NCBI GenBank assembly: GCA_035637655.1 | Contig: DASPWT010000112.1 | Span: forward strand, 176-64,175 | Source of the DNA: Burkholderiales bacterium | Lineage (GTDB): Bacteria; Pseudomonadota; Gammaproteobacteria; Burkholderiales; SG8-39 | Direction: 5' to 3' | Length of the DNA: 64,000 bases | Shown: piece by piece, positions 2,076 through 33,289 of the stretch | Layout: the number at the start of each line of letters is the position of its first letter | How positions within the stretch are numbered: the first letter of the stretch is position 1 | Position numbers and translations under genes: made by a program | The notes under the pieces: model-generated | Told to the model about the DNA's origin: nothing | What the model saw: the letters and a program-made list of their open reading frames with translations, nothing else | Databases searched by the model: none

Positions 2076-3188
2076 ATGAAAACCACGTCGTCTAGACCGC
2101 TTACGCTGGTTCACGATTCGATCGAAGCCAAGCTCGCGCCGCTCAAGATCCTGGTCATCGACGACCAGTCCACCGGGCGCATCGTGCTGAGCGAGATCAT
2201 GAGGAGCCTCGACGCGAGTCTGGAGGTTGCCACGTTCGCCGACCCTTTGGAGGCCATCGAATACGCGCGCAAGCACCCTGTCGACATGGTGCTCACCGAT
2301 TACAAGATGCCGAACTTGGACGGTATCGAGGTCATCCGGAGGCTGCGCCGCATTTTCGGCTACGAGGACGTTCCGATCATCTGCATCACGGTGGTGAACG
2401 ATCGCGAAGTCCGCTACCGTGCCCTGGAGGCCGGGGCCACCGACTTCCTGATTCGCCCGATCGACCGGCTCGAATGCGGGGCGCGCTGCCGCAATCTCCT
2501 GAGCCTGCGCCGGCATGAAATTCTCAAGAAAAACAGAACCCGGATTCTCGAGCAGAAGATCGACGAGGCCACCCGCGAGTTGCGGCGCCGCGAAGTCGAG
2601 ACGCTGTTTCGGCTGGCGAAGGCCGCCGAGCAGCGCGACAAGGTGACCGGAATGCACCTGGTGCGGATGGCCAAGTACTCCGCCCTGATCGCCAAAGGCG
2701 TCGGGCTGTCCTTGGCTGAGCAAGATGCGATCGAGCTGGCCGCGCCGATGCACGATATCGGAAAAATCGGCATTCCGGACCGGATCCTGCAGAATCCCGG
2801 AAGGCTCGACGGCGAGGACCTGCGAGTCATGCAGTCGCATGCGCGCATCGGCTACGACATGCTGAAGGACAGCTCTTCCGGATATCTGCAAATGGCCGCG
2901 GTGATCGCGCTCGGCCATCACGAGAAGTACGACGGCAGCGGTTACCCGACCGGCCTCAGGGGCGAGCACATTTCGCTCGAAGCGCGAATCGTCGCCATCG
3001 CGGATGTCTACGACGCGCTCACCTCGGTTCGCCCCTACAAACCGGCTTGGCCCGTGGAGGAAGCGTTCGTCTACATGGCGGAGCACGCCGGCAGGCATTT
3101 TGATCCGAAGCTTGTGGAAATCCTGGTGCGGAACCGAGACGAAGTCCTCTCCATCGGCGAACGGTTTGCCGATCAGCTGGCGCAGTGA
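2076..3188 (+). CDS. rpfG: Response regulator with HD-GYP c-di-GMP phosphodiesterase domain (RpfG-like)
   Basis: It has a receiver domain (DMVLTDYKMPNLDG) and an HD-GYP domain (HDIGKIGIPD ... GHHEKYDGSGYP). Confidence 0.85.
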   Translation: MKTTSSRPLTLVHDSIEAKLAPLKILVIDDQSTGRIVLSEIMRSLDASLEVATFADPLEAIEYARKHPVDMVLTDYKMPNLDGIEVIRRLRRIFGYEDVPIICITVVNDREVRYRALEAGATDFLIRPIDRLECGARCRNLLSLRRHEILKKNRTRILEQKIDEATRELRRREVETLFRLAKAAEQRDKVTGMHLVRMAKYSALIAKGVGLSLAEQDAIELAAPMHDIGKIGIPDRILQNPGRLDGEDLRVMQSHARIGYDMLKDSSSGYLQMAAVIALGHHEKYDGSGYPTGLRGEHISLEARIVAIADVYDALTSVRPYKPAWPVEEAFVYMAEHAGRHFDPKLVEILVRNRDEVLSIGERFADQLAQ

Positions 3189-3204
3189 CCCGGAACCGGG
3201 CCGG

Positions 3205-5724
3205 ATGGCGCTGAAATCGATCTTCGCCGGCCTTCGAGCGCGCCTCGCCGCGCGCCCGGACACAGAGCACGAGCAGGCGATCGTCCGGCTGGTGGTGTAT
3301 TCCGTGCTGTTCCTGTATCTGCTGCCGCAGGCTTTCGGCGGCATCGAAGTCCGCAACGAAGTCAACCCGCTGTTTTTCTCGGCCATGATCTGCTTCATGG
3401 TGCTAGCGGCGGCCGTGTTCGGCTGGATCTGCCTGTTTCCGTCGGCTTCGCCCGTGCGCCGCGTTACCGGGTCTTTGCTCGACGTCGTCGCGACAACGTT
3501 TTTCATGTACAACCTAGGCGTGTACGGAACGCCCTTTTACGTCGTTTATCTCTGGATTATCTTCGGCAACGGCTTCCGTTACGGCAAGGCGTATCTCTAC
3601 AACTCCCTGGCATGGAGCGTGGTCGGCTTCAGCTTGGTCCTCGCGGTGAACGACTATTGGGTTGCGAACCGCCCGCTGGGCATCGGCCTTCTCGCGGGCA
3701 TGATTGTGTTGTCGATGTATGTTGGGAAGCTGGTGAAGCGGCTGTTCGATTCGCTTCACCGCGAGGAGGCCGCGAATCAGGCGAAGCGACGTTTCCTCTC
3801 CACGGTAAGCCACGAGATGCGCACCCCGCTCAACGCGATCGTCGGAATGAACGACCTGCTGCGCGACACCCCTTTGAACTCGGAGCAGGCCGAGATGGTG
3901 AAGGCGATGCACGAAGCCTCGCAATCCATGCTCAAACTGATCGAGAACGTGCTCGATATTTCCAAGATCGAGGCCGGCAAGGTCAACATCGAGGAGACCG
4001 ACTTCGACCTGCACGCCCTGATCAACGGCACCTCGGGAGTGCTCGCGCCGCAGGCCGAGATTCGTGGGCTGCAGCTTCGTACTCTCGTGATGCCGGAGGC
4101 GGCCCACGCGCTGCGCGGCGATCCCTATCATCTACGCCAGGTGCTCTATAACCTCATCGGAAACGGTATCAAGTTCACCCAGTCCGGCAGCGTCACCTTG
4201 ACCGTTTCGAGCCTGGGCGAGAGCGAGCATGCGGTGCGGCTGAGATTTGCCATCGAGGATACGGGGATAGGCATCGCGCCCGAAGCTCAGGAACGCATTT
4301 TCGAGAGTTTCGTCCAGGCCGACGACTCGACCACGCGCCGCTACGGCGGAACCGGGCTCGGAACGACGATCTCGAAACAGCTGGTGGAGATGATGGGCGG
4401 GCAGATCGGCCTGAACAGCACGCCCGGAAAGGGCAGCACATTCTGGTTTGAGCTCCCCTTCAAGAAGCAGATGGTGGGACTGGTTCCCGAAGCTTCGCTC
4501 CGGCTCAACGATATCCGGATCATGCTCCTCGGTTTCGCCGACGCGCAGCTGCAGGCGCTCGAGCAGGATCTCGCCACTTGGGGGGCGCGCACCGGGCGCG
4601 CAGCGGGCGTAGAGGCGGGGGCTGCGCGCCTCGCCGAGGCGCAGTCGCTCGGGCACCCCTACCACTTGGTGCTTCTGCGCGAAGACGCGCAGGTCGAACC
4701 GAACCGACTTCTCGCTCGCCTCCGCAATAGCCGCAGCCAGAAGGCGCCTCCTACGGTCCTGTGCACGCCCGGCGTATCGCAGATTCGCAGCGCCGAAGCG
4801 CTTGCGGGCGGTTTCGTGGCGGTACTGGAAATGCCGCTAGAGAAGCGGCTCCTCTTTAACGCCATCCATTCGGCCACTGCGGTCCAAGCGAGCCAGGAAG
4901 GCGTCATTTCGCTCAGCAATTACTACGCCGCCCGCGACGCCAACCGGCGCCGCTACCAGATCCTCGTGGCGGAAGACAACGCGGTGAACCAGCGCGTCAT
5001 CGTCGGGATACTGGAACGCGCCGGGCACAGAGTCCGGGTCGTGGACGACGGGGAGCAGGCGCTCGATGTCCTCGAGAACGAGCGGTTCGATGTGGTCATC
5101 ATGGATCTCAACATGCCCGAGCTCGGCGGGCTGGACGCCGCGCGGGCCTACCGCTTTATGGATCCGGAGGCGATACAGGTCCCGATCATCATGCTTTCGG
5201 CGGACGTCACCTCGGAGACGATGAAGGAATGCGAGGAGGCGGGGATCGATGCTTTCTTGTCCAAACCGATCGAGGCTCGCCGCCTGCTTGACACCATCGC
5301 GAGCCTGATTGCAAAGCGCGCGACCGCTCTCGCGGCGTCCGGCGACGGCGCCGAGAAAACCCAGGTGGTCATCAATCCGGCGACGCTCTCGGAGCTCGAG
5401 CTCATCAGCGCGGATAGCACCTTCATGCCGGAACTCCTCAACGGATTCATCCAGGACGGCGAGGCGCTGCTGCGGCAGATGGAAGCCGCAGTGGCGGCGG
5501 AGCAATACGAGACGCTCAGGGACCTCGTGCACGCCATGAAGGGCTCGGCGGTTACGCTCGGCGCCGAGCAGCTGTGCCAGACCTGCGTCGGAATCAGCGG
5601 TCAGACGACATCGGAACTGCAAGCGGGCGGATCACGCGCCCTAAAGGTGGTGCGGGAGCAGTTTCAGCAGACGCGCGCTTCGCTCCTCGATTATCTCAAG
5701 AAAAACCAGAGCGCGGCCCGCTGA
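3205..5724 (+). CDS. rpfC: Hybrid sensor histidine kinase, RpfC-like (multi-TM input, HisKA, HATPase, receiver, HPt)
   Basis: ATG at 3205 (MALKSIF) lies 16 nt after the rpfG stop. There are about five hydrophobic helices, then the H-box SHEMRTPLNAI, GTGLGTTISKQLVEMMGG, a receiver DVVIMDLNMPELGG and an HPt HAMKGSA. The ORF-track start at 3004 overlaps rpfG and is rejected. Confidence 0.85.
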   Translation: MALKSIFAGLRARLAARPDTEHEQAIVRLVVYSVLFLYLLPQAFGGIEVRNEVNPLFFSAMICFMVLAAAVFGWICLFPSASPVRRVTGSLLDVVATTFFMYNLGVYGTPFYVVYLWIIFGNGFRYGKAYLYNSLAWSVVGFSLVLAVNDYWVANRPLGIGLLAGMIVLSMYVGKLVKRLFDSLHREEAANQAKRRFLSTVSHEMRTPLNAIVGMNDLLRDTPLNSEQAEMVKAMHEASQSMLKLIENVLDISKIEAGKVNIEETDFDLHALINGTSGVLAPQAEIRGLQLRTLVMPEAAHALRGDPYHLRQVLYNLIGNGIKFTQSGSVTLTVSSLGESEHAVRLRFAIEDTGIGIAPEAQERIFESFVQADDSTTRRYGGTGLGTTISKQLVEMMGGQIGLNSTPGKGSTFWFELPFKKQMVGLVPEASLRLNDIRIMLLGFADAQLQALEQDLATWGARTGRAAGVEAGAARLAEAQSLGHPYHLVLLREDAQVEPNRLLARLRNSRSQKAPPTVLCTPGVSQIRSAEALAGGFVAVLEMPLEKRLLFNAIHSATAVQASQEGVISLSNYYAARDANRRRYQILVAEDNAVNQRVIVGILERAGHRVRVVDDGEQALDVLENERFDVVIMDLNMPELGGLDAARAYRFMDPEAIQVPIIMLSADVTSETMKECEEAGIDAFLSKPIEARRLLDTIASLIAKRATALAASGDGAEKTQVVINPATLSELELISADSTFMPELLNGFIQDGEALLRQMEAAVAAEQYETLRDLVHAMKGSAVTLGAEQLCQTCVGISGQTTSELQAGGSRALKVVREQFQQTRASLLDYLKKNQSAAR

Positions 5725-5764
5725 GGCAGGGACGTGACATGGACAAGGGACGGCGCGAGAAACC

Positions 5765-6028
5765 ATGGCTGACTTGTCACTGCGTGACCGAGTAATTCAG
5801 CGTCTTCTGGCCGCATCCGATGCAAAACTCACCGCGGCCGACGTAGACGACGCGACATCGCTTCGACAGGATCTGGACATCAGTTCACTGATTTTGATCA
5901 CATTGGCTTCCGAGCTGGAGGATGAGTTGGGGATAGACATCGACGATGAGGACCTTGGCCGCATACAGACGATCGGCGATCTTTTCAAGGCGATCGAGAG
6001 CAGGAAGCGGCAGAATCGGCAGGCGTGA
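5765..6028 (+). CDS. Acyl carrier protein (second, non-housekeeping copy)
   Basis: An 87-aa acidic protein. The helix-II region DLDISSLILITLASELEDELG carries the Ser expected for 4'-phosphopantetheine. Its stop overlaps the next start (GTGA at 6025-6028). Confidence 0.75.
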   Translation: MADLSLRDRVIQRLLAASDAKLTAADVDDATSLRQDLDISSLILITLASELEDELGIDIDDEDLGRIQTIGDLFKAIESRKRQNRQA

Positions 6029-7293
6029 CGCAGTCTGAGTCAATGACTCCTCGGCGAGTAGCAATCACGGGAGTCGGTCTCGTATCGTGCCTTGGGCACG
6101 ATTACAGCCAAGTGGTGAGGGCTCTCCAAAACGGGGTAAGCGGCATCCGCGCCATGCCGGAGTGGGAAAACCTGGGCCTGAAGAGCCGGGTGGCGGGTAC
6201 GATCCTGGACGTCGAGGCCAAGTTCGAGTGCTCGCCCATCCCGAAAAAACTGCGTCCCGCGATTTCGGAAGCATCCAAATACTGCTGCCTCGCCGCGCTC
6301 GATGCCATCGGCGATTCCGGGCTTTCCGAGGTCGACCTGCAGTCCGACAGAACGGCGTGCATCGTCGGTACGGGAATCGGAAGCGTGGGATCCACCTATA
6401 CGACAGGGCGACAGCTCTATTCCGGAGAGATTGCGAAGCTCAGCCCGCTTGTCGTGCTGAAAAGCATGGCCAGCGCGTCGAGCGCGGCGGTGGCCAACCT
6501 GCTCAAGGTCCACGGACGCAGTTATTCGATCAGCTCTGCCTGTTCGACGTCCTCTCACAGCATCGGCACGGCATACGAGCTCATCCGTTACGGCATCGTC
6601 GACCGTGCCATCGCAGGGGGCGGAGAGGAGGTGCACCCTATGATTGCCGCGGGTTTTCAGGCCCTTCGATTCGCGCTCGCCACGAAATTCAACGAGTGCC
6701 CGCAACGGGCGTCGCGCCCTTATGATGTCGCGCGCGACGGGTTCGTGATCGGGGGTGGTGCGGGGATCGTCGTACTCGAGGCCTGGGACCAGGCGTTGGC
6801 GCGTCGGGCTCGCGTGCGCGCCGAGATCGTCGGGTTCGGGACAAGCTCGGATGGTTTCGACATGGTGATGCCGGAGCCGACTGGGGTGCACGCCGCCAAG
6901 AGCATGCGCAACGCCATAGAAGGCAGCGGTATGAGTCCTCGAGACGTCGGTGCCGTCAACACGCACGGCACGGCGACTGCCAAAGGTGACGTCGCTGAAG
7001 TCGAGGCAATGAAGGAAGTGTTCGACGGCAAACCGCCGCCGTTCTCATCGACAAAATCGATGACCGGCCATCCCCTGGGTGCGGCCGGAGCACTGGAGAC
7101 GATCTTTTGCATAGGCATGCTCGAGCATCGCTTCATTGCCCCTTCCATCAACATCGAAGAACTCGATCCTGAATTCGCGGGATTGCCGGTCGTAACGACC
7201 CCCAAGTTCACGGAACTGGACACCATACTTTCCAATAGTTTCGGATTCGGTGGAACCAACGCGAGCCTTCTATTGAAGGCATTTCGCAACTAG
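6025..7293 (+). CDS. Beta-ketoacyl-ACP synthase I/II-type (elongating KAS, Cys-His-His), second copy
   Basis: Motifs are ISSACSTSSHSIG (active Cys), NTHGTATAKGD, KSMTGHPLGAAG and [13 protein letters not shown]. It is translationally coupled to the upstream ACP. Confidence 0.85.
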   Translation: MTQSESMTPRRVAITGVGLVSCLGHDYSQVVRALQNGVSGIRAMPEWENLGLKSRVAGTILDVEAKFECSPIPKKLRPAISEASKYCCLAALDAIGDSGLSEVDLQSDRTACIVGTGIGSVGSTYTTGRQLYSGEIAKLSPLVVLKSMASASSAAVANLLKVHGRSYSISSACSTSSHSIGTAYELIRYGIVDRAIAGGGEEVHPMIAAGFQALRFALATKFNECPQRASRPYDVARDGFVIGGGAGIVVLEAWDQALARRARVRAEIVGFGTSSDGFDMVMPEPTGVHAAKSMRNAIEGSGMSPRDVGAVNTHGTATAKGDVAEVEAMKEVFDGKPPPFSSTKSMTGHPLGAAGALETIFCIGMLEHRFIAPSINIEELDPEFAGLPVVTTPKFTELDTILSNSFGFGGTNASLLLKAFRN

Positions 7294-7488
7294 CGCGGCG
7301 TGTTTCATTCGAGCGCTTCTGCGCATCGCCTGGGTTCCTCCATCAGGCTTGGGAACAAGACTCGCTGCGCATGAGCCCCACCGGGGCGCGTCCTAACGCA
7401 CCGGTCGGGACGGATCGGATCCGGCCCCGGCAGGTCATGGCTCAAGCGCGCGAGCGCCCATGCTTCGGGCGGACATGCACAGCCGGGC

Positions 7489-8430
7489 TCAGGCCGTCGC
7501 GTACCGCAGTTCCTCCGCCATTCCTGCCACCTCCGGTATCTCCGCCGCGCCGCCCGGGATACGCCGGAATTGGGACCGCGCCAAGCGGCTCATCATCTTG
7601 AGATCTCTCTCTTCCAGCCGCGTTGCAGCGTCGACCCAGACGTTGGTGATATTGAGCATCTCCTCGTAGCTCACCCGTTGGAAATGCTGGCGGCAGCTGA
7701 ACACGGCCTGCATACCATTGCGGTGTCGCTCGTTGCGGCGGATGTATTCGCGTACCGCCGTCTCCCCGTTTCCGTCCTCGACGAGAACGTCCACTACGCC
7801 CATCTCGTACAACTCCTCGGCGGTGTAGATGCGGCCGGAAAGAATCATTTTCTCGGCACGCTTCATTCCGAGCCGCCGGCTGAGCAGGCTGTAGGCTCCC
7901 ATGCCGGGGAAGAGGTTGAACAGGATCTCGGGCATTCCCATGCGCGCGCGGCGCTCGGCGATGATCACATTCGAGGAAAGCGCTGTCTCGAAACCTCCGC
8001 CGAGAGCTTCACCTTGCACCAGGGAAATCGTAATCAAGGGGCCGTTGTAGTTGCAGATCCTCGAATACATGTTGTCGATGCAGAGCTTAGCGTAATGCAT
8101 CAACGCATCGCGGTCCTGAGATTTCACCAGCTGCACGAACAGCGCCAGATCCCCTCCCAGGTTGAACACGTTCTCGGTCTTGGAGGCCACCACGTAATAG
8201 CGGATCTGGCGGAGCTCGCCCTTGTGCAGGAGGCGCCCGCCGTTCGCTTCGATCGCCGCGTCGTGGGCCCGCAACTCGTCGAGCAGCCCGAGATTGAAAC
8301 ACGGTACTCCAGACGGATTCAGGTAGGTCCATGCTACAGCGTCCTCGGGATCGAACCTGACCTCGATCTGCTTGTAGTAGTCCCGTTTAAACATTCCCTC
8401 TATCGCTCTTAATTCGACCGGTGCGTTCAT
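7489..8430 (-). CDS. rpfF: DSF-family signal synthase, RpfF-like crotonase (enoyl-CoA hydratase superfamily)
   Basis: Blocks VFNLGGDLALF, LVQGEALGGGFETALS, GMPEILFNLFPGMGAYS and ITNVWVDAATRLEERDLKMMSRLARSQ match my recollection of Xanthomonas RpfF. The two Glu (GGGFE and MPE) are 20 residues apart, as for RpfF E141/E161. A strong RBS AGGAAGGAAG precedes the ATG. Confidence 0.8.
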   Translation of the reverse strand: MNAPVELRAIEGMFKRDYYKQIEVRFDPEDAVAWTYLNPSGVPCFNLGLLDELRAHDAAIEANGGRLLHKGELRQIRYYVVASKTENVFNLGGDLALFVQLVKSQDRDALMHYAKLCIDNMYSRICNYNGPLITISLVQGEALGGGFETALSSNVIIAERRARMGMPEILFNLFPGMGAYSLLSRRLGMKRAEKMILSGRIYTAEELYEMGVVDVLVEDGNGETAVREYIRRNERHRNGMQAVFSCRQHFQRVSYEEMLNITNVWVDAATRLEERDLKMMSRLARSQFRRIPGGAAEIPEVAGMAEELRYATA

Positions 8431-8470
8431 GACTTCCTTCCTTTCAGGGTGTGTTGAAGAAAAATGCGTT

Positions 8471-8498
8471 TTTACGGACTCTTTGCGGAGACTATACT
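8471..8498 (+). promoter_or_regulatory. Candidate sigma-70 promoter facing the GGDEF gene
   Basis: TTTACG (8471-8476), a 16-nt spacer, then TATACT (8493-8498). It would give a ~195-nt leader. Confidence 0.35.
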
Positions 8499-8560
8499 CC
8501 CAAATCCATCGTTGCCCAAAAGCCCCCTATTCCATTGTCATTGGGGTCGTTTTCCTGTCT

Positions 8561-8599
8561 ATCGGGGTTTTCCCCATTTCCCCTCAGGGAAACCCCGAT
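8561..8599. repeat. Imperfect inverted repeat (hairpin or operator) in the rpfF/GGDEF divergent intergenic region
   Basis: atcggggttt(t)ccc (8561-8574) pairs with gggaaaccccgat (8587-8599), giving 13 bp with one bulged T and a ~12-nt loop. Confidence 0.55.
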
Positions 8600-8698
8600 G
8601 GGCCGGGTCGAAAATGTGTGAAAAAGTCGGCATTCAGCCTTGGCAGCCGCAGGCGCGGCATGCGTCCGGGGTAAGGGCTGCGCCGGTCGAGCCGTAAA

Positions 8699-10297
8699 AT
8701 GGCGAAACTAAAAACCCGCGCTCGCATCTTCGTTCTGGTGATTCTCGCGGCCTTGCCGGCACTGCTGCTCACGGTCTACAGCGCGATCGAGCGGCGCGCT
8801 TCGACGGAAAACCAGGCGCGCGCGGAGCTCGGGCGGCTCGTCAAGCTGGCGGCCATGCAGCAATGGCAAGTCGTGGAGGGTGCCAGGCAGATGATGGTCG
8901 CCTCTTCGCAGATTCTCTTCACGTTGCTGAACGACAGAAGGCGCTGCACCGAGTATTTTGCGAGCTTGTTGGCGCAAAACCGGGAAACGTACCACTCGAT
9001 GGGTCTTTTTCGCTCGGACGGCCAGCTGTTCTGCAATGCTGCGAGTTGGCGGGACAAGGTCTATAGCGGGGATCGGCTGTATTTTCGACTTGCCAAGGAA
9101 ACGGGTCGATTCGCGATCGGCGAATATCAGGTCGGTCGCGTCACGGGACAAGCCGGAATCAACTTCGGATTTCCCGTCAAAGACGCGGATAACAAGGTCT
9201 ACGCCGTGGCTTTCGCGGGGCTCGATCTGGAGAATCTTGGTCGCATGGCCGAAGCGACGCCTTTGCCGCCCGAGGGTATTTTGAGCGTCGTCGACGTCAA
9301 GGGAACCATCCTCGCGCGCAAGCCCGCGATGAAAGAGCGCATCGGTGAAAGGCTTTGGAATCCGCAGGTGATCGAGGCGGTGCTCGCAGGCAGGGAAGGC
9401 GTGCTCGAGGCCAAAGGAGAGGACGGAATCGACTGGCTGCTGGCGCACGAGGTCGTCACCCAGAATCCGGACGGCGCCTTTCCGCTTCGCGTCATGGTTA
9501 CCGTTCCGCTCACCCGGGTGTTTGCCGAGGCGAACAGGGCGCTTGTCCGAGATCTGCTGGGCATCACCTTAGCCACGCTGTTTCTGCTGGTCGGAGTCTG
9601 GTACGGCGCCGAGTGGTTCGTGTTGCGTAAAGTCAGGGCGCTGCTTCGGGCCGCCGACCGGGTGCGTGGCGGCGACCTGAACGCCAGAACGGAAATTCGC
9701 TATGGCGGAGAAGAGCTGAGCCAGCTTGCACAGGCCTTCGATGCCATGGCCCAAGCCCTTCAGCAGCGGGAGCAGAAGCTCCAGGAGCGAGCGATCTCCG
9801 ACCCGCTCACCGGCCTGTATAACCGGCGCTACCTGAGCGAGTTTCTTCCGCGCGAGCTGGTGCGGTGCAGGCGCAGCGCGACGCCGGTCGCGGTGATGCT
9901 GATCGATCTGGATCACTTCAAGCGCGTCAACGATTCTTTCGGACACGAGGCCGGGGATATCGTCCTCAAGACGATCGCGGCGCTGCTCAAAGGCAAAGTT
10001 CGCGGCAGCGACATCGCCTGTCGCTACGGGGGCGAGGAGTTCGCGCTGATCCTGCCCGAAACCAGCCTCGATGCCGCCCTGCGGCGTGCCGAAGATATCC
10101 GGCTGGCGATCGCCCGCCTCGGCCTCAGCTACGCGGGAACGCCTCTGGGTAAGATCACGGCCTCGCTGGGGATCGCGCTGTTTCCGGATCACGGCGAGGA
10201 CACCGACGCCCTCCTGCGCGTGGCGGACATGGCGCTCTATGCCGCCAAGGGCGCCGGACGCGATCGGGTCGTCGCCGGCTCGGTGGAGAAACGCTGA
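8699..10297 (+). CDS. Sensor diguanylate cyclase (N-terminal TM, periplasmic Cache-like domain, HAMP, GGDEF with I-site)
   Basis: It has a signal-anchor LVILAALPALLLTVYSA, a second TM followed by a HAMP-like segment, and RYGGEEF with RGSD exactly 5 residues upstream (RxxD I-site). Confidence 0.85.
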   Translation: MAKLKTRARIFVLVILAALPALLLTVYSAIERRASTENQARAELGRLVKLAAMQQWQVVEGARQMMVASSQILFTLLNDRRRCTEYFASLLAQNRETYHSMGLFRSDGQLFCNAASWRDKVYSGDRLYFRLAKETGRFAIGEYQVGRVTGQAGINFGFPVKDADNKVYAVAFAGLDLENLGRMAEATPLPPEGILSVVDVKGTILARKPAMKERIGERLWNPQVIEAVLAGREGVLEAKGEDGIDWLLAHEVVTQNPDGAFPLRVMVTVPLTRVFAEANRALVRDLLGITLATLFLLVGVWYGAEWFVLRKVRALLRAADRVRGGDLNARTEIRYGGEELSQLAQAFDAMAQALQQREQKLQERAISDPLTGLYNRRYLSEFLPRELVRCRRSATPVAVMLIDLDHFKRVNDSFGHEAGDIVLKTIAALLKGKVRGSDIACRYGGEEFALILPETSLDAALRRAEDIRLAIARLGLSYAGTPLGKITASLGIALFPDHGEDTDALLRVADMALYAAKGAGRDRVVAGSVEKR

Positions 10298-10645: not shown

Positions 10646-10721
10646 TGGCTCCCCGACCAGGGCTCGAACCTGGGACCTGCGGATTAACAGTCCGTCGCTC
10701 TACCAGCTGAGCTATCGGGGA
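10646..10721 (-). tRNA. tRNA-Asn (GTT)
   Basis: The reverse complement tccccgatagctcagctggtagagcgacggactGTTaatccgcaggtcccaggttcgagccctggtcggggagcca folds as a cloverleaf with a 7-bp acceptor, a TTCGAGC T-loop and an encoded CCA. Confidence 0.9.
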
Positions 10722-10913
10722 TTCGAGACTCCGACGAGCGCGTTGCCGGAGATTGGAAGGCGCGTATTCTAATTCCCCGCGGGGGGACCGGTCAACGCGA
10801 CGGATCGAAGAAAAGCCGCTCCGGCCCTCATTTTCCCGGGCGGTGCAGACGCGACCCATGCCTCTTGGGCATAATGGATCCGTGAACGCCGCCGCACGGA
10901 AGGAGACGCACCG

Positions 10914-11909
10914 ATGAGTCCATCGCGTGAGAGGGCATGCCGTTGTGTCGCGGGAGCGTTGGGACTGGCTTTGAGCTTCGCGTCCACCGCTTCGCTCGCT
11001 CAGGAACCAGGCGTGTGGCCCGCCCGGACGATCCAAATCGTCGTTCCCTATACTCCGGGCACGGGCGCCGACATCCTCGCGCGGATCTTCGGACCGAAAC
11101 TTGCCGAACGCTGGAAGGTCGGCGTCGTCACCGACAATCGCGCGGGCGCTTCGGGCAACATAGGAACCGACTTCGTCGCGAAATCGGCGCCCGACGGCTA
11201 TACGCTGCTTTGCACCGCGACCTCCTTCGGAACCAATCCTGCGATCAATCAAAAGCTCCCATTCGACCCTATAAGGAGCTTTAGGCCAGTCATATTGCTT
11301 GCCACCAGCACGATGGCGGTGATCGTCACGCAAGGGTTGGCGGCCAGGTCGATGCGCGAATTCCTCGACCTCGCGCGCGGCCAGCCGGGCAAGCTCTATT
11401 ACTCTTCTCCCGGAAACGGAGGTCCGCAGCATCTCGCCATGGAGCTGCTCAAGCTCGACGCGCGTATCGACCTCGTGCACGTTCCGTACAAGGGATCGGG
11501 CGGCGCACTGACCGATCTGGTGGGCGGGCACGTCCAGGCCATGATCGTGTCGCTGCAAACGGCGGCTCCGTACGTCCAGAGCGGGAAGCTTCGCATGCTG
11601 GCTGTGATGAGCGCGGAGCGCTCGCAGGCGTTTTCCGAGGTGCCCACCCTCAAAGAGCTGGGCCTCGCCGACCTCGAGGTGGAGACATGGTACGGCGTGT
11701 TCGCGCCGGCGGGGACGCCGCAGGCGGCCATCGCCAGGGTCAACGCGGAAATGAACGCGCTGCTCGAACAGAATGAGATCCGCGAGCTTCTCGCAAAACA
11801 GGGCATGGCGCCGGCCGGCGGCACGCCCGAGCGCTTCGGCGGCCTGGTGAAGAGGGAATTGGCGCGCTGGTCGCGCGTGGTCACGGCCGCGGGCATCAAG
11901 GCGGACTGA
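10914..11909 (+). CDS. Bug-family (TctC-like) tripartite tricarboxylate transporter substrate-binding protein
   Basis: A signal peptide ending ASLAQE is followed by the family-typical RTIQIVVPYTPGTGADILAR, then YSSPGNGGPQHLAMELL and VPYKGSGGALTDLVGG. Confidence 0.8.
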   Translation: MSPSRERACRCVAGALGLALSFASTASLAQEPGVWPARTIQIVVPYTPGTGADILARIFGPKLAERWKVGVVTDNRAGASGNIGTDFVAKSAPDGYTLLCTATSFGTNPAINQKLPFDPIRSFRPVILLATSTMAVIVTQGLAARSMREFLDLARGQPGKLYYSSPGNGGPQHLAMELLKLDARIDLVHVPYKGSGGALTDLVGGHVQAMIVSLQTAAPYVQSGKLRMLAVMSAERSQAFSEVPTLKELGLADLEVETWYGVFAPAGTPQAAIARVNAEMNALLEQNEIRELLAKQGMAPAGGTPERFGGLVKRELARWSRVVTAAGIKAD

Positions 11910-11948
11910 GCTCAAGCGGATTCCACGGATCACCCGACAAGAAAACAC

Positions 11949-12662
11949 ATGAGCCATATCGAAGACCTGGTCGCCGCGTACCGAATCCTCGCCGAGCACG
12001 GTGTCATCGACGCGTACGGACACGTGAGCGTGCGTTCGGAACGCGACCCCCAGCGTTACCTTCTGTCGCGCTCGCTTGCGCCGGAATTGGTGATGCCCGA
12101 GGACATCATGGAGTACGACCTCGACAGCAATCCGATCGATCCGCGGGGACGAGAGTCGGTGCGCGAGCGCTTCATTCACGGCGAGATCTTCAGGGCGCGT
12201 CCGGACGTGAACGCGGTCGTGCACAATCATTCCCCTTCGGTCGTGCCCTTCAGCGTCACGACGGTCGCGATGCGGCCGCTTTTCCACATGGCTGCGTTCG
12301 TGGGAGAGGGGGTCCCGACCTTCGAAATCCGCGATGCCGAGAAGGGCACCGATCTGCTGGTCAAAACGCCCTATCTGGGGCAGGCGCTCGCCAGGACATT
12401 GGGAAGGTCCCCGGCGGCCCTGATGCGCGGGCACGGTTCGGTTACCGTGGGCGAGAGCCTGCCCCGCGCCGTGGGGCGCAGCATCTATCTGGAAATGAGT
12501 GCGCGAATGCAGCTTCAGGCGATGGCGATCGCGGGGACCGGCGGCAAAATCACCTACCTCGACGAACAGGAGGTCCGGGCCTCCGTACCCGGGCAGGATT
12601 ACAATCGCGCCTGGCCGATGTGGCGCGCCCATGCGCTCGCCCGCCTCAAACCGCAAGCATGA
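11949..12662 (+). CDS. Class II aldolase/adducin-family protein
   Basis: Contains HGHVSVR-like DAYGHVSVRS, HGEIFRARPDVNAVVHNHSP and LMRGHGSVTVG (metal-binding His pattern). Confidence 0.7.
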   Translation: MSHIEDLVAAYRILAEHGVIDAYGHVSVRSERDPQRYLLSRSLAPELVMPEDIMEYDLDSNPIDPRGRESVRERFIHGEIFRARPDVNAVVHNHSPSVVPFSVTTVAMRPLFHMAAFVGEGVPTFEIRDAEKGTDLLVKTPYLGQALARTLGRSPAALMRGHGSVTVGESLPRAVGRSIYLEMSARMQLQAMAIAGTGGKITYLDEQEVRASVPGQDYNRAWPMWRAHALARLKPQA

Positions 12663-13869
12663 GCCACGCGGCTTCGCGCGGCACGATCCGCCCTTGAGCT
12701 TTCAACGCCTCGCCGACCAGCTCGCCGAATTGGAGCGCCGCGGCCTGCGCCGCAGTCGCCTTGTGCGCCAGAGCCCGCAGGGGCCGCGCATCGTCGTGGA
12801 CGGGCAGGAGGTCCTTGCGTTCTGCAGCAATGACTACCTGGGGCTCGCCAACCATCCGCGGATCGTGGAGGCGGCGATCGAGGCCGCCTCGCGCCACGGG
12901 GTCGGGGAGGGTGCCTCGCATCTTTTGAGCGGGCACAGCGTCGTCCACGAGCGCCTCGAAGCGAAACTCGCCGAGTTCATGCAAATGCCGCGGGCGCTGC
13001 TTTTCTCCACCGGCTATCAGGCAAACATCGGTGCCGTTACCGCGCTCGCCGGCCCGGAGGATGCGATTTTCTCCGACGCGCTCAATCACGCCTCGCTGAT
13101 CGACGGCGTGCGCTTGTCGCGCGCCCGGGTGATTCGCTACCCGCACGCCGATCTCGGGTTCCTGTCGGGAGCGCTGGCAGAATCCAGCGCAAGAACGAGA
13201 CTGATCGTCAGCGACGGCGTATTCAGCATGGACGGCGACATCGCGCCGTTGCCGGCCCTGCTCGATTTGTGCGAACGCCACGATGCCTGGCTTCTGGTCG
13301 ACGACGCGCACGGCTTCGGCGTGATCGGCCCCGGAGGCCGCGGGTCGCCGGCGCACTTCGGCTTGCGCTCGCCGCGCCTCGTCTACGTCGGAACGCTCGG
13401 CAAGGCGGCGGGCGTGGCGGGCGCTTTCGTCGCGGGCGCCGCGGAAGTGGTGGAAACGGTGCTGCAGCGGGCGCGGACCTATATCTACACCACGGCTGCG
13501 CCAGCGATGCTTGCGGCCGCGGTCGAAGCGAGTCTTCAGCTCATCCTGGAAGACGAATGGCGTCGCGAGCATCTGCGAAAGCTGATCGCGCTGCTGAGAC
13601 GGGAGCTGCAGGGGAGCGAAAGCGCGCTTGCCCCATCCGATACGCCGATTCAGCCGCTGATCCTCGGAGGGAACAACGAGGCCGTACGGGCGAGTGCGGC
13701 GCTGCACGAGCGCGGCATTCTCGTGCCTGCGATCCGTCCGCCGACCGTGCCCGAGGGTACCGCCCGGTTGCGCATCTCGCTTTCTGCGGCTCATAGCGAG
13801 CAGGAGGTTTTGCGTCTTGCCGCGGCGCTGCGTGAGGTGTGTCAAAGCGGCGTGGCGACACAGGCCTAA
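12631..13869 (+). CDS. bioF: 8-amino-7-oxononanoate synthase
   Basis: Contains FCSNDYLGLANHP, the PLP-lysine context GTLGKAAG and DDAHGFGV. The start is uncertain: ATG 12631 overlaps the aldolase by 32 nt, and TTG 12694 is an alternative. Confidence 0.85.
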   Translation: MRSPASNRKHEPRGFARHDPPLSFQRLADQLAELERRGLRRSRLVRQSPQGPRIVVDGQEVLAFCSNDYLGLANHPRIVEAAIEAASRHGVGEGASHLLSGHSVVHERLEAKLAEFMQMPRALLFSTGYQANIGAVTALAGPEDAIFSDALNHASLIDGVRLSRARVIRYPHADLGFLSGALAESSARTRLIVSDGVFSMDGDIAPLPALLDLCERHDAWLLVDDAHGFGVIGPGGRGSPAHFGLRSPRLVYVGTLGKAAGVAGAFVAGAAEVVETVLQRARTYIYTTAAPAMLAAAVEASLQLILEDEWRREHLRKLIALLRRELQGSESALAPSDTPIQPLILGGNNEAVRASAALHERGILVPAIRPPTVPEGTARLRISLSAAHSEQEVLRLAAALREVCQSGVATQA

Positions 13870-13892
13870 AGCGCTGAACGGAACGCTCGAAA

Positions 13893-14570
13893 GTGGGTCA
13901 GGGCTTTTTCGTTACCGGAACCGACACCGGGGTCGGCAAAACCCTGGTCGCCTGCGCGCTCCTGCGCGCTTTTGCCAGGACGGGGAAGTCCGTGGTGGGC
14001 ATGAAGCCGGTTGCCGCCGGACGCGAAGCGGGCCGCTTCGCGGATGTCGAAGCCCTGGCGCACGCGAGCACGGTGAGTGCAAGGCCGCAAGTCGTCAATC
14101 CCTACGCCTTCGAGCCGGCGATTGCCCCCCACATCGCGGCGGAACTGGCCGGCTTCGAAATCGGCCTCGAACCGATCGCGCGTGCCTACGAGGAGCTGTC
14201 GCGGCTGGCCGAGGTTGTCGTGGTGGAAGGCGCCGGGGGTTTTCTCGTGCCGCTCAATGCAACCCAGACCGGCGCCGATCTCGCGATGCGGCTGGGTTTG
14301 CCGATCGTGCTCGTCGTCGGGATGCGGCTCGGCTGCTTGAATCATGCATTGCTCACGCGACGGCAGATCGAGGCTTCCGGGTTGCGTTGCGCGGGCTGGG
14401 TGGCGAATTGCATCCTCCCCGACATGCCTCATTTGGAGGGCAACATCCGCGCGCTCGAGCAGCGCCTCGATTGTCCGCTGCTCGGCGTGTTGCCGTTTCG
14501 GCTCGATCCGGTCCCGGCAGAGGTCGCCCCGCTTCTTTCGCTCGAATCGCTTGTCGAGGCTACCGCGTGA
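13893..14570 (+). CDS. bioD: Dethiobiotin synthase
   Basis: GTG start. The P-loop is FFVTGTDTGVGKT, and VVEGAGG is present. Confidence 0.85.
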   Translation: MGQGFFVTGTDTGVGKTLVACALLRAFARTGKSVVGMKPVAAGREAGRFADVEALAHASTVSARPQVVNPYAFEPAIAPHIAAELAGFEIGLEPIARAYEELSRLAEVVVVEGAGGFLVPLNATQTGADLAMRLGLPIVLVVGMRLGCLNHALLTRRQIEASGLRCAGWVANCILPDMPHLEGNIRALEQRLDCPLLGVLPFRLDPVPAEVAPLLSLESLVEATA

Positions 14571-14584
14571 GCGCAAATGCAAGC

Positions 14585-15901
14585 ATGCTGGAGCGGAGCC
14601 TGCGGGCGGTCTGGCATCCCTGCACGCAGATGAAGCACCACGAAACGCTGCCGCTCGTGCCGATCAACCGCGCCGAAGGGGCCTGGCTCTACGATTTCGA
14701 GGGCCACCGCATCCTCGATGCGATCGGCTCCTGGTGGGTCAACCTGCTGGGGCACGGCGACCCCCGCATCAATGCCGCGCTACGGCACCAGCTCGATTCG
14801 CTGGAACACGTCATGCTCGCCGGGTTCACGCACGCGCCGGCAGTCGAGCTCTCCGAGCGCCTCGCGAAGCTCGCTCCCGGCGGACTCGGCCATTGCTTTT
14901 TCGCCTCCGACGGGGCCTCCGCAGTCGAAATCGCGTTGAAGATGAGCTATCACTACTGGAGAAACTCAGGCCGCGCGAAGAGCGGATTCGTGACCCTTGC
15001 CAACAGTTACCACGGCGAGACTCTGGGCGCGCTGTCGGTCACCGATATTGCGCTCTACCGCGACACCTACGCTCCGCTCCTGCGCGCCAGTGTGCAGGTA
15101 CCTTCTCCGGACTGGCGTCTGGCCGAGCCGGGCGAGACGCGAGAGGAGTATGCGCGACGCTGCGCAAAGGCGCTCGAAGAGCACCTCGAGCGGCATGCCG
15201 CGGAAACCGCCGCGCTCATCGTCGAGCCGCTTGTGCAATGCGCGGGCGGGATGGCGATGTACGACGCGGAATATCTGCGCCGCGCCCGCGAGCTCTGCGA
15301 TCGCTTCGACGTCCATCTCATCGCCGACGAGATAGCAGTGGGGTTCGGGCGCACCGGGACTCTCTTCGCCTGCGAGCAGGCGGGGATCACGCCCGATTTC
15401 CTGTGCCTCTCCAAGGGCCTCACGGGCGGCTACCTACCGCTCTCGGTAGTGCTCGCAACCGATCGCGTCTACCGGGCTTTCTACGACGACAAGCTCGAGC
15501 GCGCTTTCCTTCACTCGCATTCCTTCAGCGGCAATCCGCTTGCCTGCCGCGCTGCCCTGGCCGTGCTCGACATCCTGGAAGAAGAGAAGGTGCTGGAGCG
15601 CAACCGAAATACGGCGGCGACCCTGAACCGGCGCGCCGATAAGCTGCGCTCGCACCGGCGCGTCGCGCACTTCCGCAACACGGGAATGATCTGGGCGTTC
15701 GACGTGCGGGACGCTCAACCGGGATTTGGGCCGGACTTCTATCGAGGCGCTCTCGAGATGGGCGTACTGCTCCGGCCGCTGGGCTCCACGGTCTACTGGA
15801 TGCCGCCTTACATCATCGAAGAAACCGAAATCGACTTTCTTCTGAGCACGGTGAAAAGGCTCCTGGACGCCGGAGGGACCGGACCCGAGTCCCGGGGGTG
15901 A
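14585..15901 (+). CDS. bioA: Adenosylmethionine-8-amino-7-oxononanoate aminotransferase
   Basis: ATG at 14585 ([16 protein letters not shown]). Contains [11 protein letters not shown] and [11 protein letters not shown] (PLP Lys). The upstream part of ORF-track 13694..15901 overlaps bioF/bioD and is rejected. Confidence 0.85.
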
Positions 15902-30363: not shown

Positions 30364-31392
30364 GTGGAAATCACCGTAGCCATCGATTGCATGGGCGGCG
30401 ATCATGGTCCGCACGTTACCGTGCCGGCGGCGCTCAATTTCCTGAAATCCAATTCGGACGTCGACGTCGTCCTGGTGGGGTTGCGCGACGCCATCGAGGC
30501 GGAGCTCAAGGCGCGCGGTGCCCAGTCCGGTCCGCGCCTGCGCGTGCACCACGCAAGCGAGGTCGTGCTGATGGACGAATCCCCGGCGCTTGCGTTGCGC
30601 AACAAGAAGGATTCGTCAGTTCGCGTCGCGGTAGAGCTGGTCAAGAACGGCGAAGCGCAGGCCTGTGTCAGCGCCGGCAACACGGGGGCGCTGATGGCGG
30701 TCTCGCGCTTCGTTCTCAAGATGCTTCCGGGCATCGACCGCCCCGCGATCATCGCCGCGCTGCCCAGCATGCGGGGCAGCACCTACGTCCTCGATCTCGG
30801 CGCCAATGTCGATTGCGGGCCGGAGCACCTGCTGCAGTTCGCCATCATGGGGGCGACGCTGGTCGCGGCGGTGGAGCACAAGGATCGGCCGAGCGTCGGC
30901 CTGCTCAACATCGGCGAGGAGGACATCAAAGGCAACGAAGTGGTGAAGCGGGCGGCCGAGCTGCTGCGCGAGAGCGGCCTCAATTTCATCGGTAACATCG
31001 AAGGTGGCGGAATCTACAAGGGGGAAGCCGACGTGGTGGTGTGCGACGGATTCGTCGGCAACGTCATGCTCAAGGCCTCCGAGGGAATGGTGCAGATGGT
31101 ACGCAGCTTCATTCGCCAGGAATTCATGCGCAGCGTTCTCGCCAGGCTGGCCGGCGTAATCGTCATGCCGGTGCTCTACGCGTTCCGCAAGCGGCTTGAC
31201 CCGCGCCGCTTCAACGGCGCGACTTTGCTCGGATTGAGAGGAATCGTCGTGAAGAGCCACGGCTCCGCCGACGTGTTTGGATTCGAGCGCGCCATCGAGC
31301 GGGCCATGGAGGAGGTGCGCAATGAAGTGCTGCACCGCCTGATGCTGCGGTTCGGACAGGCCGAGCGGGGGAATCCCGAGGTGGAAACGTGA
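30364..31392 (+). CDS. plsX: Phosphate acyltransferase PlsX
   Basis: GTG start. Contains [11 protein letters not shown] and [12 protein letters not shown]. It is syntenic with rpmF and fabH. Confidence 0.9.
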
Positions 31393-32348
31393 TCTGGTCG
31401 CGCATCATCGGCACCGGGAGCTATTTGCCGCCGAAGCTCGTCACCAACGACGATCTGGCCAAACAAATGGACACCACCGACGAATGGATCCGGACGCGCA
31501 CCGGCATTCGCCAGCGTCACATCGCCGAACCCTCGCAGGCCGCCAGCGACCTCGGTGTCGAGGCCAGCCGCGCGGCGCTTGCCGCGGCGCGCATCGGCGC
31601 GCAGGAAATCGATCTCATCATTGTGGCCACGGCGACGCCCGACTACATTTTTCCGAGCACGGCTTGCATCATGCAGGCGAAGCTGGGCATAAAGGGCTGC
31701 GCCGCGTTCGATATTCAGGCCGTCTGCAGCGGTTTCGTATATGCGCTGGCGATCGCCGACAAATTGATCCGATCGGGCCAGCATCGCTGCGCTCTCATCG
31801 TCGGCACCGAAGTGTATTCGCGCATCCTCGACTGGAAAGATCGCGGCACTGCGGTCCTGTTCGGCGACGGCGCCGGCGCAGTGGTCCTCCGGGCGGACGC
31901 CAAGCCCGGCATCATGGCTAGCGTGCTGCACGCCGACGGGTCGTACGTCGACATTCTTTCGGTGCCCGGCAACGTTTGCGACGGCAAGATCGTCGGGTCG
32001 CCGTTTCTGCAGATGGACGGGCAAGCGGTTTTCAAGTTTGCGGTCAAGGTGCTGGACGAGGTCGCGCGCGAGACCTTGGCCTTGTGCGGTCTCACCCCCG
32101 TGGACATCGACTGGCTCATTCCGCACCAGGCCAACGTGCGCATCCTCGAGGCGACCGCGAGGAAGCTCGGCGTCGATCTGTCGAAGCTCGTCGTCACCGT
32201 GGACCTTCACGGCAATACGTCGGCCGCTTCGGTGCCTCTCGCGCTGGATGTGGCGATCCGAGACGGGCGCATCAAGCCGGGCCACAAGGTCATGCTCCAG
32301 GGGGTGGGCGGCGGCTTCACCTGGGGCGCGTTACTGGTGGAGATGTAG
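31389..32348 (+). CDS. fabH: 3-oxoacyl-ACP synthase III
   Basis: The GTGA overlap with plsX marks the start. The Cys-His-Asn triad contexts are [16 protein letters not shown] and HGNTSAAS. Confidence 0.9.
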
Positions 32349-32353
32349 TCGAG

Positions 32354-33289
32354 GTGAAGTTCGCGATGGTTTTTCCAGGCCAAGGGTCGCAGTCGGTGGG
32401 GATGCTCGCCGGCTACGGCGACATGCCCGCGATCCGTGAGACGCTTGCCGAAGCATCCGATGTCCTGAAGCAGGACCTCGCCAAGTTGATCGCCGAAGGC
32501 CCTGCGGAGGAACTCAACAGCACCGTCAATACCCAGCCGGTCATGGTGACGGCGGGCATCTGTGCCTGGCGCGCGTGGCGGGAGTCGGGCGGCGCCGAGC
32601 CCTCGCTGCTTGCCGGTCACAGCCTCGGCGAGTACACCGCGCTCGTTGCGGCCGGCGCGATTTCCTTCGCCGACTGCCTCCCCCTGGTGCGCCTGCGCGG
32701 CCGGGCGATGCAGGACGCGGTGCCGCACGGCAGCGGCGCGATGGCGGCCATCCTGGGCCTGGATGACGAAGCGGTAAAGGCGGCGTGTGCCGAAGCCGCA
32801 CAGGGCGATGTCTGCGAGGCGGTAAACTTCAATGCGCCGGGACAAGTGGTCATCGCCGGACACGCTGGCGCTGTGCAGCGGGCGATCGAGGCCGCAAAGG
32901 CGCGAGGCGCGAAGCGGGCGGTCGCCCTGCCGGTGAGCGCTCCATTCCACTCCTCGTTGATGGCTCCGGCTGCGGCAAGGCTGAGAGAAGCGCTCGAGAG
33001 AATCGCAGTGAATTCTCCGCGAATCCCGGTCATCCATAATGTCGATGCGAGGAGCCGCGCCGACGCCGCAGGGGTCAAGAAGGCGCTGGTGACTCAGGCT
33101 GACCATCCGGTGCGCTGGGCTGAGTGCGTGAGGGAGATGGCGGCACGAGGCGTGACGCAGATTTTCGAATGCGGCCCGGGTAAGGTGCTCGCGCCGCTTG
33201 TCAGGCGCACTGCCGGGGAATTGCAGGGCATTGCGCTCGCCGACCGTGCGGGGCTCGAGCAGGGCGCGCAATTGTCGAAAGCTGCATGA
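32354..33289 (+). CDS. fabD: Malonyl-CoA-ACP transacylase
   Basis: Contains FAMVFPGQGSQ and GHSLGEY. GTG at 32354 is preferred, with ATG 32366 as an alternative. The ORF-track start at 31976 is inside fabH. Confidence 0.9.
   Translation: MKFAMVFPGQGSQSVGMLAGYGDMPAIRETLAEASDVLKQDLAKLIAEGPAEELNSTVNTQPVMVTAGICAWRAWRESGGAEPSLLAGHSLGEYTALVAAGAISFADCLPLVRLRGRAMQDAVPHGSGAMAAILGLDDEAVKAACAEAAQGDVCEAVNFNAPGQVVIAGHAGAVQRAIEAAKARGAKRAVALPVSAPFHSSLMAPAAARLREALERIAVNSPRIPVIHNVDARSRADAAGVKKALVTQADHPVRWAECVREMAARGVTQIFECGPGKVLAPLVRRTAGELQGIALADRAGLEQGAQLSKAA

Follow-up and report, generated by a model that had tools for sequence, protein, structure and literature searches.

Why would a locus for diffusible signal factor (DSF) signalling encode its own acyl carrier protein (ACP) and its own condensing enzyme? 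DSF-family signals are cis-2-enoic acids, and the usual view is that they are drawn off the general pool of the fatty-acid synthase (FAS). The question is raised by a 64,000-nucleotide stretch of DNA from a Burkholderiales bacterium (GenBank assembly GCA_035637655.1, contig DASPWT010000112.1, positions 176 to 64,175, forward strand), referred to here in its full length as the window. Five genes at 2076-8430 of the window encode a REC/HD-GYP regulator, a hybrid kinase, an ACP, a beta-ketoacyl-ACP synthase (KAS) and a convergent crotonase, and the third and fourth products are called the extra ACP and the extra KAS below. Comparison with related loci indicates that this pair is an accessory module of two translationally coupled genes, added behind rpfC at the 3' end of an rpfG-rpfC operon. 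With a probability that we put at about even, the pair would provide a private elongation step or line on its own carrier, to supply or tailor what the RpfF-like crotonase acts on. The features concerned are the following.

2076-3188, plus strand: RpfG-like response regulator, first gene of the unit (PF00072, PF13487/PF01966)
3211-5724, plus strand: RpfC-like hybrid sensor kinase (Pfam: membrane sensor, HisKA, HATPase, REC, HPt)
5725-5764, plus strand: 40-nt spacer between rpfC and the ACP gene (similar spacing in relatives, 38-44 nt in L001 and L045)
5765-6028, plus strand: extra ACP, 87 aa, isoelectric point 4.3 (PF00550)
6025-7293, plus strand: extra KAS, a KAS I-like elongating enzyme, 422 aa, GTG start (PF00109, PF02801)
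7294-7488, no strand: convergent intergenic region, 195 nt, predicted to be structured (fold z-score -2.7)
7489-8430, minus strand: RpfF-like crotonase of the DSF-synthase type, 313 aa (NF006452)
30364-35637, plus strand: housekeeping plsX-fabH-fabD-fabG-acpP-fabF operon, the comparator (six products, each above its NCBIfam curated cutoff)

The extra carrier protein and ketosynthase

An earlier annotation made from the window alone (the original prediction) had described the ACP, the KAS, the GTGA overlap of their stop and start codons at 6025-6028, the 40-nt gap behind the kinase gene, the convergence on the crotonase gene and the housekeeping operon, and every detail was confirmed. The extra ACP scored 37.5 bits against PF00550 (cutoff 20.8) and carries its phosphopantetheine serine within DLDISSL; the serine was invariant in 71 homologues. 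The protein stayed under all of the NCBIfam cutoffs for ACPs (its best score was 44 bits, with a cutoff of 71), was 29% identical to the AcpP of the window, and has S, I and T in helix II at the positions of the acidic AcpP residues D35, D38 and E41. Judged by curated score and acidic helix II together, it is not a housekeeping AcpP.

The extra KAS matched the FabB (KAS I) model best among the NCBIfam models, with 425 bits against a cutoff of 630; it reached 377 bits with the FabF model (cutoff 494) and 375 bits with PRK07314 (cutoff 387), and it lies below the curated FabB and FabF equivalog cutoffs. The closest solved structures were FabB enzymes in the PDB, at ∼340 bits. E. coli FabB was 46% identical to the protein, and the FabF of the window 36%. 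Cys173, His314, Lys344 and His349 were invariant in 52 full-length homologues, which gives the enzyme the Cys-His-His set of an elongating KAS. With this divergence from AcpP and FabF, and with the housekeeping operon intact, the proposal that the pair is a specialised second copy was borne out.

Compared with eight relatives, the ratio of nonsynonymous to synonymous divergence (dN/dS) was 0.12-0.25 for the extra KAS and 0.09-0.26 for the extra ACP, pairs with dS above 1 included. The GTGA overlap was kept in most related loci, and some others start the KAS gene at an ATG 13-35 nt past the ACP stop. The GTG start is credible, because GTG is the only in-frame start in L064, L065, L079 and L089 and the only other choice in L087 is a TTG. 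The extra ACP and KAS are encoded by real genes under purifying selection and not by a chance pair of open reading frames (ORFs). A status as pseudogenes or hitch-hikers was ruled out by the dN/dS of 0.1-0.25 and the invariant catalytic residues. A foreign insertion was not supported either: the GC content of the pair (57-66%) matches that of its neighbours, and no repeats or mobile genes lie at the borders of the pair in the window. A tblastn search with the extra KAS against the PLSDB plasmids returned only true FabB genes, at no more than 46% identity.

The sensor operon

The RpfG-like protein has an HD motif at aa 226 and a GYP motif at aa 289, which makes it a REC plus HD-GYP phosphodiesterase for cyclic di-GMP; it was 94-97% identical in most type A loci. 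The ORF of the RpfC-like kinase mechanically begins at 3004, and its probable start is the ATG at 3211; the homologue in L001 was called at 836 aa. Hydrophobic segments within aa 23-176 correspond to a multi-pass membrane sensor. An RpfC-type architecture beside a REC/HD-GYP regulator was thereby found, and the assignment to RpfC and RpfG is one by architecture.

Across related loci the kinase and ACP genes lie on the same strand with a gap of 36-158 nt. A prediction scan detected no terminator-like site in the spacer at 5725-5764. Consensus scans for promoters and terminators found sites no more often than in shuffled sequence, and the 5724-5765 gap contained no site; such a consensus is uninformative for a high-GC betaproteobacterium. 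The RpfF-proximal part of the convergent region (∼7381-7488) is common to loci that do not have the pair, and in L006, L009 and L014 its counterpart comes straight after the stop codon of rpfC. In the window, the intergenic sequence that follows rpfC in those relatives thus follows the KAS gene. Together with the 40-nt gap and the clean terminator scan, this made the suggested co-transcription of rpfG, rpfC and the pair plausible. The further suggestion that co-transcription would place precursor supply under the signal's own two-component control found no support: RpfG is an HD-GYP phosphodiesterase rather than a transcription factor, and the analysis identified no promoter.

The RpfF-like crotonase

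The crotonase passed NF006452 with 375 bits (cutoff 177) and reached 234 bits with the RpfF equivalog model NF053515, below its cutoff of 550. By these scores it is a relative of RpfF and not a certified equivalog. Its best solved relatives were RpfF of Xanthomonas campestris (Xcc; 3m6m, the top match), 7zq7, 6dgn and Bcam0581 (5fus). In the alignment to 3m6m, the window protein has the same residues as Xcc at G85, G86, L136, G137, G138, E141, E161, M170, W258 and L276, whose roles in the Xcc pocket have been described (PMC9864630). Both catalytic glutamates (Xcc E141 and E161) and the oxyanion-hole glycines of an RpfF-type crotonase are therefore present.

No canonical U-tract terminator was detected in the convergent region at 7294-7488, which on its predicted fold is a possible bidirectional terminator. 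The flanks of rpfF in the window and in two sampled clades that lack the KAS contained no rpfB-like gene; the KAS-negative flanks examined held housekeeping genes such as pcnB, folK and panC. The idea that the pair substitutes for an rpfB lost from the cluster was rejected for a swap at the level of the cluster, as those two clades have no acyl-CoA ligase by RpfF. In L001, a gene beside rpfF (12442-13506) encodes an NMO-family protein (PF03060) that was not conserved in other loci; we take this fold to include the FabK enoyl-ACP reductases.

Distribution of the extra pair

The 120 best-listed homologues of the extra KAS (at least 57% identity, of 8000 scored) all came from metagenomes or metagenome-assembled genomes. 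Those named were Betaproteobacteria/Burkholderiales, with Acidobacteriota/Thermoanaerobaculia among the ∼60% matches, and no cultured carrier of the pair was among the KAS or RpfF matches listed. A metagenome scan with look-ups gave 76 loci with a KAS at least 65% identical. Many of them derive from related soil populations, so that the counts are not independent; the order was nonetheless kept across saturated synonymous sites, the arrangement being retained at dS 0.9-1.5. Three fragmentary or odd matches (L104, L109 and L118), presumably from contigs of poor quality, were left uninterpreted.

Where at least 700 nt of upstream flank was available (60 loci), an RpfC-family hybrid kinase and the ACP lay directly upstream of the KAS in 57. 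The kinase was of the window type (HK1) in 42 of these and of a second type (HK2) in 15; HK2 was 32% identical to the window RpfC over aa 62-826, much of the membrane region included. A 58th case is L101, in which rpfC is frameshifted. What had looked like a 760-nt insertion between rpfC and the ACP gene in L101 proved to be a 13-nt tandem duplication that frameshifts rpfC (880-1700), which could reflect either an error of assembly or a null allele present in nature. A convergent RpfF was present in 42 of the 48 loci with at least 700 nt of downstream flank. Both flanks were available in 38 loci, of which 29 had HK1 with RpfF, three had HK2 with RpfF and six had HK2 without RpfF. A KAS at least 69% identical was never seen apart from an RpfC-family kinase. 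At 63-64% identity (L122 and L123) the ACP was kept, and L122 had no RpfC-like gene upstream; the upstream flank of L123 (∼380 nt) was too short to judge the kinase. From these loci, the link to the kinase appears to start at about 69% KAS identity.

A proposed private elongation line

Known RpfF enzymes dehydrate a 3-hydroxyacyl-ACP to the cis-2-enoyl-ACP and then hydrolyse it (PMC4504480), and their product spectra reportedly depend on the acyl-ACP supplied (PMC4958263, PMC4542539). As the product of a KAS needs only reduction by FabG to become an RpfF substrate, a private line on the extra ACP is the best-supported model. In this model FabD, presumably the housekeeping enzyme, would malonylate the holo form of the extra ACP, and the extra KAS would join an acyl primer to the malonyl-ACP, giving a 3-oxoacyl-ACP. 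The housekeeping FabG would reduce this to the 3-hydroxyacyl-ACP, and the RpfF-like crotonase would dehydrate it to the cis-2-enoyl thioester, the hydrolysis of which would free the signal acid. FabD, FabG and the other FAS enzymes would be provided by the housekeeping operon. The intermediate would be partly insulated from FabZ, FabI and bulk lipid synthesis, because helix II of the extra ACP is unlike that of AcpP, and the module would determine the flux to the signal and perhaps also how its chain is built. In favour of the model are the divergence of the pair beside an intact housekeeping operon, the invariant catalytic residues and purifying selection, the kinase and ACP upstream and convergent RpfF downstream in most loci, the confinement of the KAS-positive loci to one RpfF clade, and RpfF pocket substitutions confined to KAS-positive loci (the last two are described below). 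The sequences establish the gene identities, the catalytic residues, the operon-like spacing, the conservation, the purifying selection and the clade distribution, and we infer all of the biochemical steps, the co-transcription and the coupling to RpfF.

The nearest outgroup homologues offer a parallel for the dehydration step. Their KAS was 58-61% identical (Acidobacteriota/Thermoanaerobaculia) and lies in a conserved cluster of an ACP, the KAS, a FabZ-like dehydratase and a metallophosphoesterase (L002-L005, L120 and L121). Genes for aldehyde dehydrogenases and an NAD-dependent reductase-like protein flank the cluster in L002-L005 and L120. The FabZ-like dehydratase implies that this ACP-KAS family elsewhere pairs with a private 3-hydroxyacyl-ACP dehydratase, and by this analogy the RpfF-type crotonase is the sole candidate in the window for such a role.

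The insulation could also be the whole purpose of the pair. A private carrier would then keep a promiscuous RpfF thioesterase off the housekeeping acyl-AcpP pool, with the structure of the signal unchanged; this is very unlikely in our estimation, and so is the associated idea that the pair does the job of the acyl-CoA ligase RpfB, which serves recycling in Xanthomonas. The problem posed by the RpfF thioesterase and the role of RpfB are cited in PMC9040811 (its reference 34). The departure of helix II from AcpP at D35, D38 and E41 fits such insulation, as does the missing rpfB-like gene by RpfF in the window and in the two sampled KAS-negative clades. Most relatives, however, do without either a nearby rpfB or the pair, and RpfF would have to discriminate against AcpP, yet the window RpfF is canonical at the positions checked.

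How closely the pair is tied to RpfF

The private line has to be weighed against a series of results that loosen the connection to RpfF. No reductase, malonyltransferase or phosphopantetheinyl transferase was found within the cluster. An RpfF-based survey collected 38 loci with relatives of the window RpfF in a species-representative genome collection, and the KAS was present in one of them (L008); in at least 27, rpfG-rpfC converges directly on rpfF. L006, L009 and L014 share synteny with the window on either flank, and what they are missing is precisely 5721-7380. Both the single occurrence among the 38 loci and the clean absence from syntenic relatives mean that the pair is accessory and not core; it is characteristic of a single clade of uncultured soil Burkholderiales. 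In a neighbour-joining (NJ) tree of RpfF, every KAS-positive locus fell into a single clade, the deeper clades were all KAS-negative, and the KAS-negative L006, L007 and L009 were nested inside the KAS-positive clade. On this tree, one gain of the pair followed by a few losses is the simplest reading, and mosaicism blurs the exact counts.

The pair is also tied more tightly to the sensor operon (∼58 of 60 loci) than to the synthase (42 of 48). Since rpfC and rpfF also converge where the pair is missing, its adjacency to rpfF largely follows from this ancestral convergence, as a by-product of its being appended to rpfGC. The original prediction had the pair wedged between sensor and synthase, and the position is true as such; it is the linkage to the kinase operon that is informative, because the genes share a strand with a short gap, no terminator is predicted between them, and the pair lies upstream of the shared intergenic sequence. 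The co-occurrence with RpfF homologues, for which a survey had been proposed, held in part: the rpf-type locus is co-conserved at dS 0.9-1.5, but the survey yielded one KAS-positive RpfF locus in 38, and six modules show no RpfF in the available flank.

These six modules (L082, L083, L087, L090, L093 and L119) consist of a helix-turn-helix gene, a divergent REC-only regulator, HK2, the ACP and the KAS. No crotonase was found in the available flank, which was 10 kb in L090 and 0.7-1.5 kb downstream in the other five. The module adjoins TrbE/VirB4 in L090 and L093; L090 also has TrbL/VirB6 and further type IV secretion system genes, and L119 has TraI and IS605 genes. ParA, ParB-KorB and a Gabija-like pair of AAA_15 and UvrD proteins lie beside the module in L090 (1-21207). 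Judged by these genes, at least three of the six modules are on contigs that resemble conjugative elements.

From this arises a different explanation, in which the product of the pair is independent of RpfF: its partner would be the RpfC-family kinase operon, and the product would be a ligand, co-ligand or output of the sensor. We consider this somewhat unlikely. In this view the proximity to rpfF is inherited from the ancestral convergence of rpfGC and rpfF. The explanation would account for the near-total kinase linkage across two kinase types that are only 32% identical, and for the six HK2 modules without RpfF in up to 10 kb of flank, beside Trb/VirB, ParA/ParB-KorB or TraI genes. The KAS of these loci was basal in the kinase-linked clade of the NJ tree, but the rooting on an outgroup only 36% identical is weak. 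The RpfF-less loci show no conserved thioesterase or acyltransferase beside the pair, and the acyl-ACP has to be the substrate of an enzyme whose gene lies at another site, a chromosomal RpfF perhaps. The direct biochemical fit of the KAS product to the known RpfF substrate likewise speaks for the private line.

The distribution bears as well on the idea that the extra KAS is a FabB-type paralogue for the synthesis or remodelling of membrane fatty acids (e.g., unsaturated acids), co-expressed as a regulated output with no role in the signal. Its nearest characterised relatives are indeed FabB enzymes, and such enzymes can have broad roles, initiation included (PMC10869286). We nevertheless hold this to be highly improbable: the FabB score of 425 is below the cutoff of 630, the enzyme comes with its own divergent ACP, for which a membrane-lipid paralogue has no need, and at 69% identity or more it never occurs away from an RpfC-family kinase. 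Its absence from syntenic close relatives also argues against a housekeeping role.

Mosaic alleles

The blocks of the locus have been exchanged between relatives. The DNA of the window and L045 was 94-99% identical except for two stretches, ∼3150-3700 (the membrane sensor of RpfC, 62-70% identical) and ∼7400-8700 (RpfF and its upstream region, 67-80% identical). The window RpfF allele was 73% identical to that of loci otherwise 96-97% identical. Against L045, dS was 0.92 for rpfF and 0.08 for the KAS gene, and this difference indicates allele replacement and not fast protein evolution. The pattern (window vs L045; compare L044 and L046) points to the joint replacement of sensor input and synthase by recombination. 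The pair itself was still 96-97% identical, so that the allelic difference is not carried by the KAS, a further point that loosens the tie to RpfF. Homology with L065, in which the sensor pair is of the HK2 type, begins at 5760, at the start of the ACP gene. Taken together, the breakpoints with L045 and L065 imply that three blocks reassort independently: sensor and regulator, the ACP-KAS pair, and RpfF with or without the GGDEF gene described below. That breakpoints separate the pair from RpfF on one side (L045) and from the sensor pair on the other (L065) would also be expected if its product were independent of RpfF.

Over aa 1-190, the RpfC sensors of L044-L102 fell into discrete classes that were 63-68% identical and shuffled with respect to the cytoplasmic part of RpfC, the KAS and RpfF. 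L057, for example, has an L046-type sensor on an L059-type backbone. A pherotype-like co-variation of synthase and sensor is seen between the window and L045, yet as a general rule it was rejected: among the other loci the sensors reshuffle with RpfF 85-95% identical.

Among the KAS-positive loci, the commonest RpfF allele (L044-type, 33 loci) has D87N, L90N, F91L and M170N, and the RpfF of L001 has D87N, L90K and F91L. D87N, L90N/K and F91L thus occur together in 34 of 40 KAS-positive loci, 33 of which also have M170N, and in none of 30 KAS-negative loci. All 30 KAS-negative loci and six KAS-positive ones, the window included, keep the Xcc residues at 87, 90, 91 and 170. Positions 87, 90 and 91 adjoin the oxyanion-hole glycines, and M170 is a reported precursor-contact residue (PMC9864630). 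Their restriction to KAS-positive loci speaks for a coupling of the pair to RpfF; on the other side, these pocket substitutions amount to only one or two evolutionary events, and the window RpfF is canonical.

A variant of the private line would yield a DSF-family signal of new structure. The extra KAS would extend the cis-2-enoyl-ACP that RpfF produces and skip enoyl reduction, in the manner of NodFE (discussed below), and a second round by RpfF would give a conjugated or poly-unsaturated 2-enoic acid. We rate this as quite unlikely. The strict kinase-ACP-KAS linkage would then reflect a sensor specificity matched to the chain defined by the KAS, copies on conjugative elements could run a private signalling channel with the RpfF of their host, and the polar substitutions D87N, L90N and M170N in the commonest KAS-positive RpfF allele would be adaptations to that substrate.

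Neighbouring genes

Beyond rpfF and on the far side of the regulator gene, the surroundings of the locus are partly variable and partly syntenic. Two further features were annotated.

8699-10297, plus strand: dCache-HAMP-GGDEF diguanylate cyclase, divergent from rpfF and variable among relatives
10646-10721, minus strand: tRNA-Asn(GTT) (Rfam)

The GGDEF gene is a presence/absence polymorphism; it was found in L063, L065, L077 and L006 and was missing from L044, L045 and L102. The tRNA-Asn was the only match of an Rfam search for regulatory RNA in the window. Inspection of the ORF translations at 10914-15901 by eye suggested a Bug-family (tripartite tricarboxylate) binding protein, a class II aldolase-like gene and bioF-bioD-bioA, and the flank from the tRNA to the bio genes (10646-15901) was syntenic in most relatives. 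At the other end, the 625-aa ORF at 20-1897 (also 60-542) is probably an over-extended frame. At the equivalent position, related loci have a PhyH-like hydroxylase gene, cut here by the window start, followed by a gene for a ∼450-aa NAD-binding oxidoreductase, and this flank was syntenic in KAS-positive as well as KAS-negative loci.

Relation to known systems

The convergent layout of rpfGC and rpfF is also that of the Xcc rpf cluster. With the Xanthomonas-type system the window shares the REC/HD-GYP regulator, the hybrid kinase and a crotonase of the RpfF type that has the two glutamates and a pocket like that of Xcc. It differs in the two extra genes that end the rpfGC unit, in having no rpfB, rpfH or rpfA nearby, and in an RpfF that belongs to NF006452 and lies below the RpfF equivalog cutoff; its hosts are uncultured soil Burkholderiales. 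Clusters of rpfF, rpfG and rpfC are known outside the xanthomonads (PMC4504480). Full-text literature searches turned up no publication that places an ACP or KAS within an rpf cluster, in agreement with the original prediction that described rpf systems have no dedicated carrier or condensing enzyme.

The nearest functional analogue of the extra pair, by analogy of gene content, is NodF/NodE of rhizobia. NodE acts in making the unsaturated acyl chain of the Nod factor. Here too a specialised ACP and an elongating KAS stand side by side in a signalling locus, apart from the housekeeping acpP and fabF, and the extra pair likewise consists of adjacent, coupled genes distinct from the housekeeping copies. 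For NodF, a role in the acyl chain of the Nod factor is cited in PMC9542644. The NodFE products go to a chitooligosaccharide, however, and not to release by a crotonase, and the likeness that we infer is one of function. FabA/FabB and the Acidobacteriota clusters with a FabZ-like protein also combine a KAS I-like enzyme with a dehydratase for 3-hydroxyacyl-ACP. Unlike in these, the dehydratase partner in the window would be a thioester-hydrolysing crotonase encoded convergently and not in the same operon.

A precedent for a specialised FAS paralogue that feeds the DSF precursor is FabG2 of Xanthomonas campestris (XCC0416), a long-chain 3-oxoacyl-ACP reductase that contributes to DSF synthesis according to PMC5941067, which places only FabG1 in the FAS gene cluster. 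A specialised FAS enzyme in DSF synthesis was thus already known, which weakens the original interpretation. FabG2 differs from the extra pair in being a reductase, neither carrier nor condensing enzyme, and in working on the general ACP. In Stenotrophomonas maltophilia, RpfF and the N-terminal sensor region of RpfC vary together in the rpf-1 and rpf-2 types (PMC4504480, PMC4517397). The comparison of the window with L045, in which both are replaced, resembles this, whereas other loci of the present set reshuffle their sensors without matching RpfF classes.

Implications

The controls on the chain length and amount of DSF are only partly understood, with FabH primers and FabG2 as examples from Xanthomonas. 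To our knowledge, the extra ACP and KAS would be the first case of a DSF-class signal with its own carrier and condensing enzyme. If true, this would give an experimental handle on what determines the identity of the signal and on what stops the synthase from draining the synthesis of membrane lipids. The locus provides natural allele swaps, of sensor domain, of synthase and of the presence or absence of the pair, for tests of specificity. The kinase-ACP-KAS modules on conjugative elements hint that mobile elements may carry fatty-acid signalling modules.

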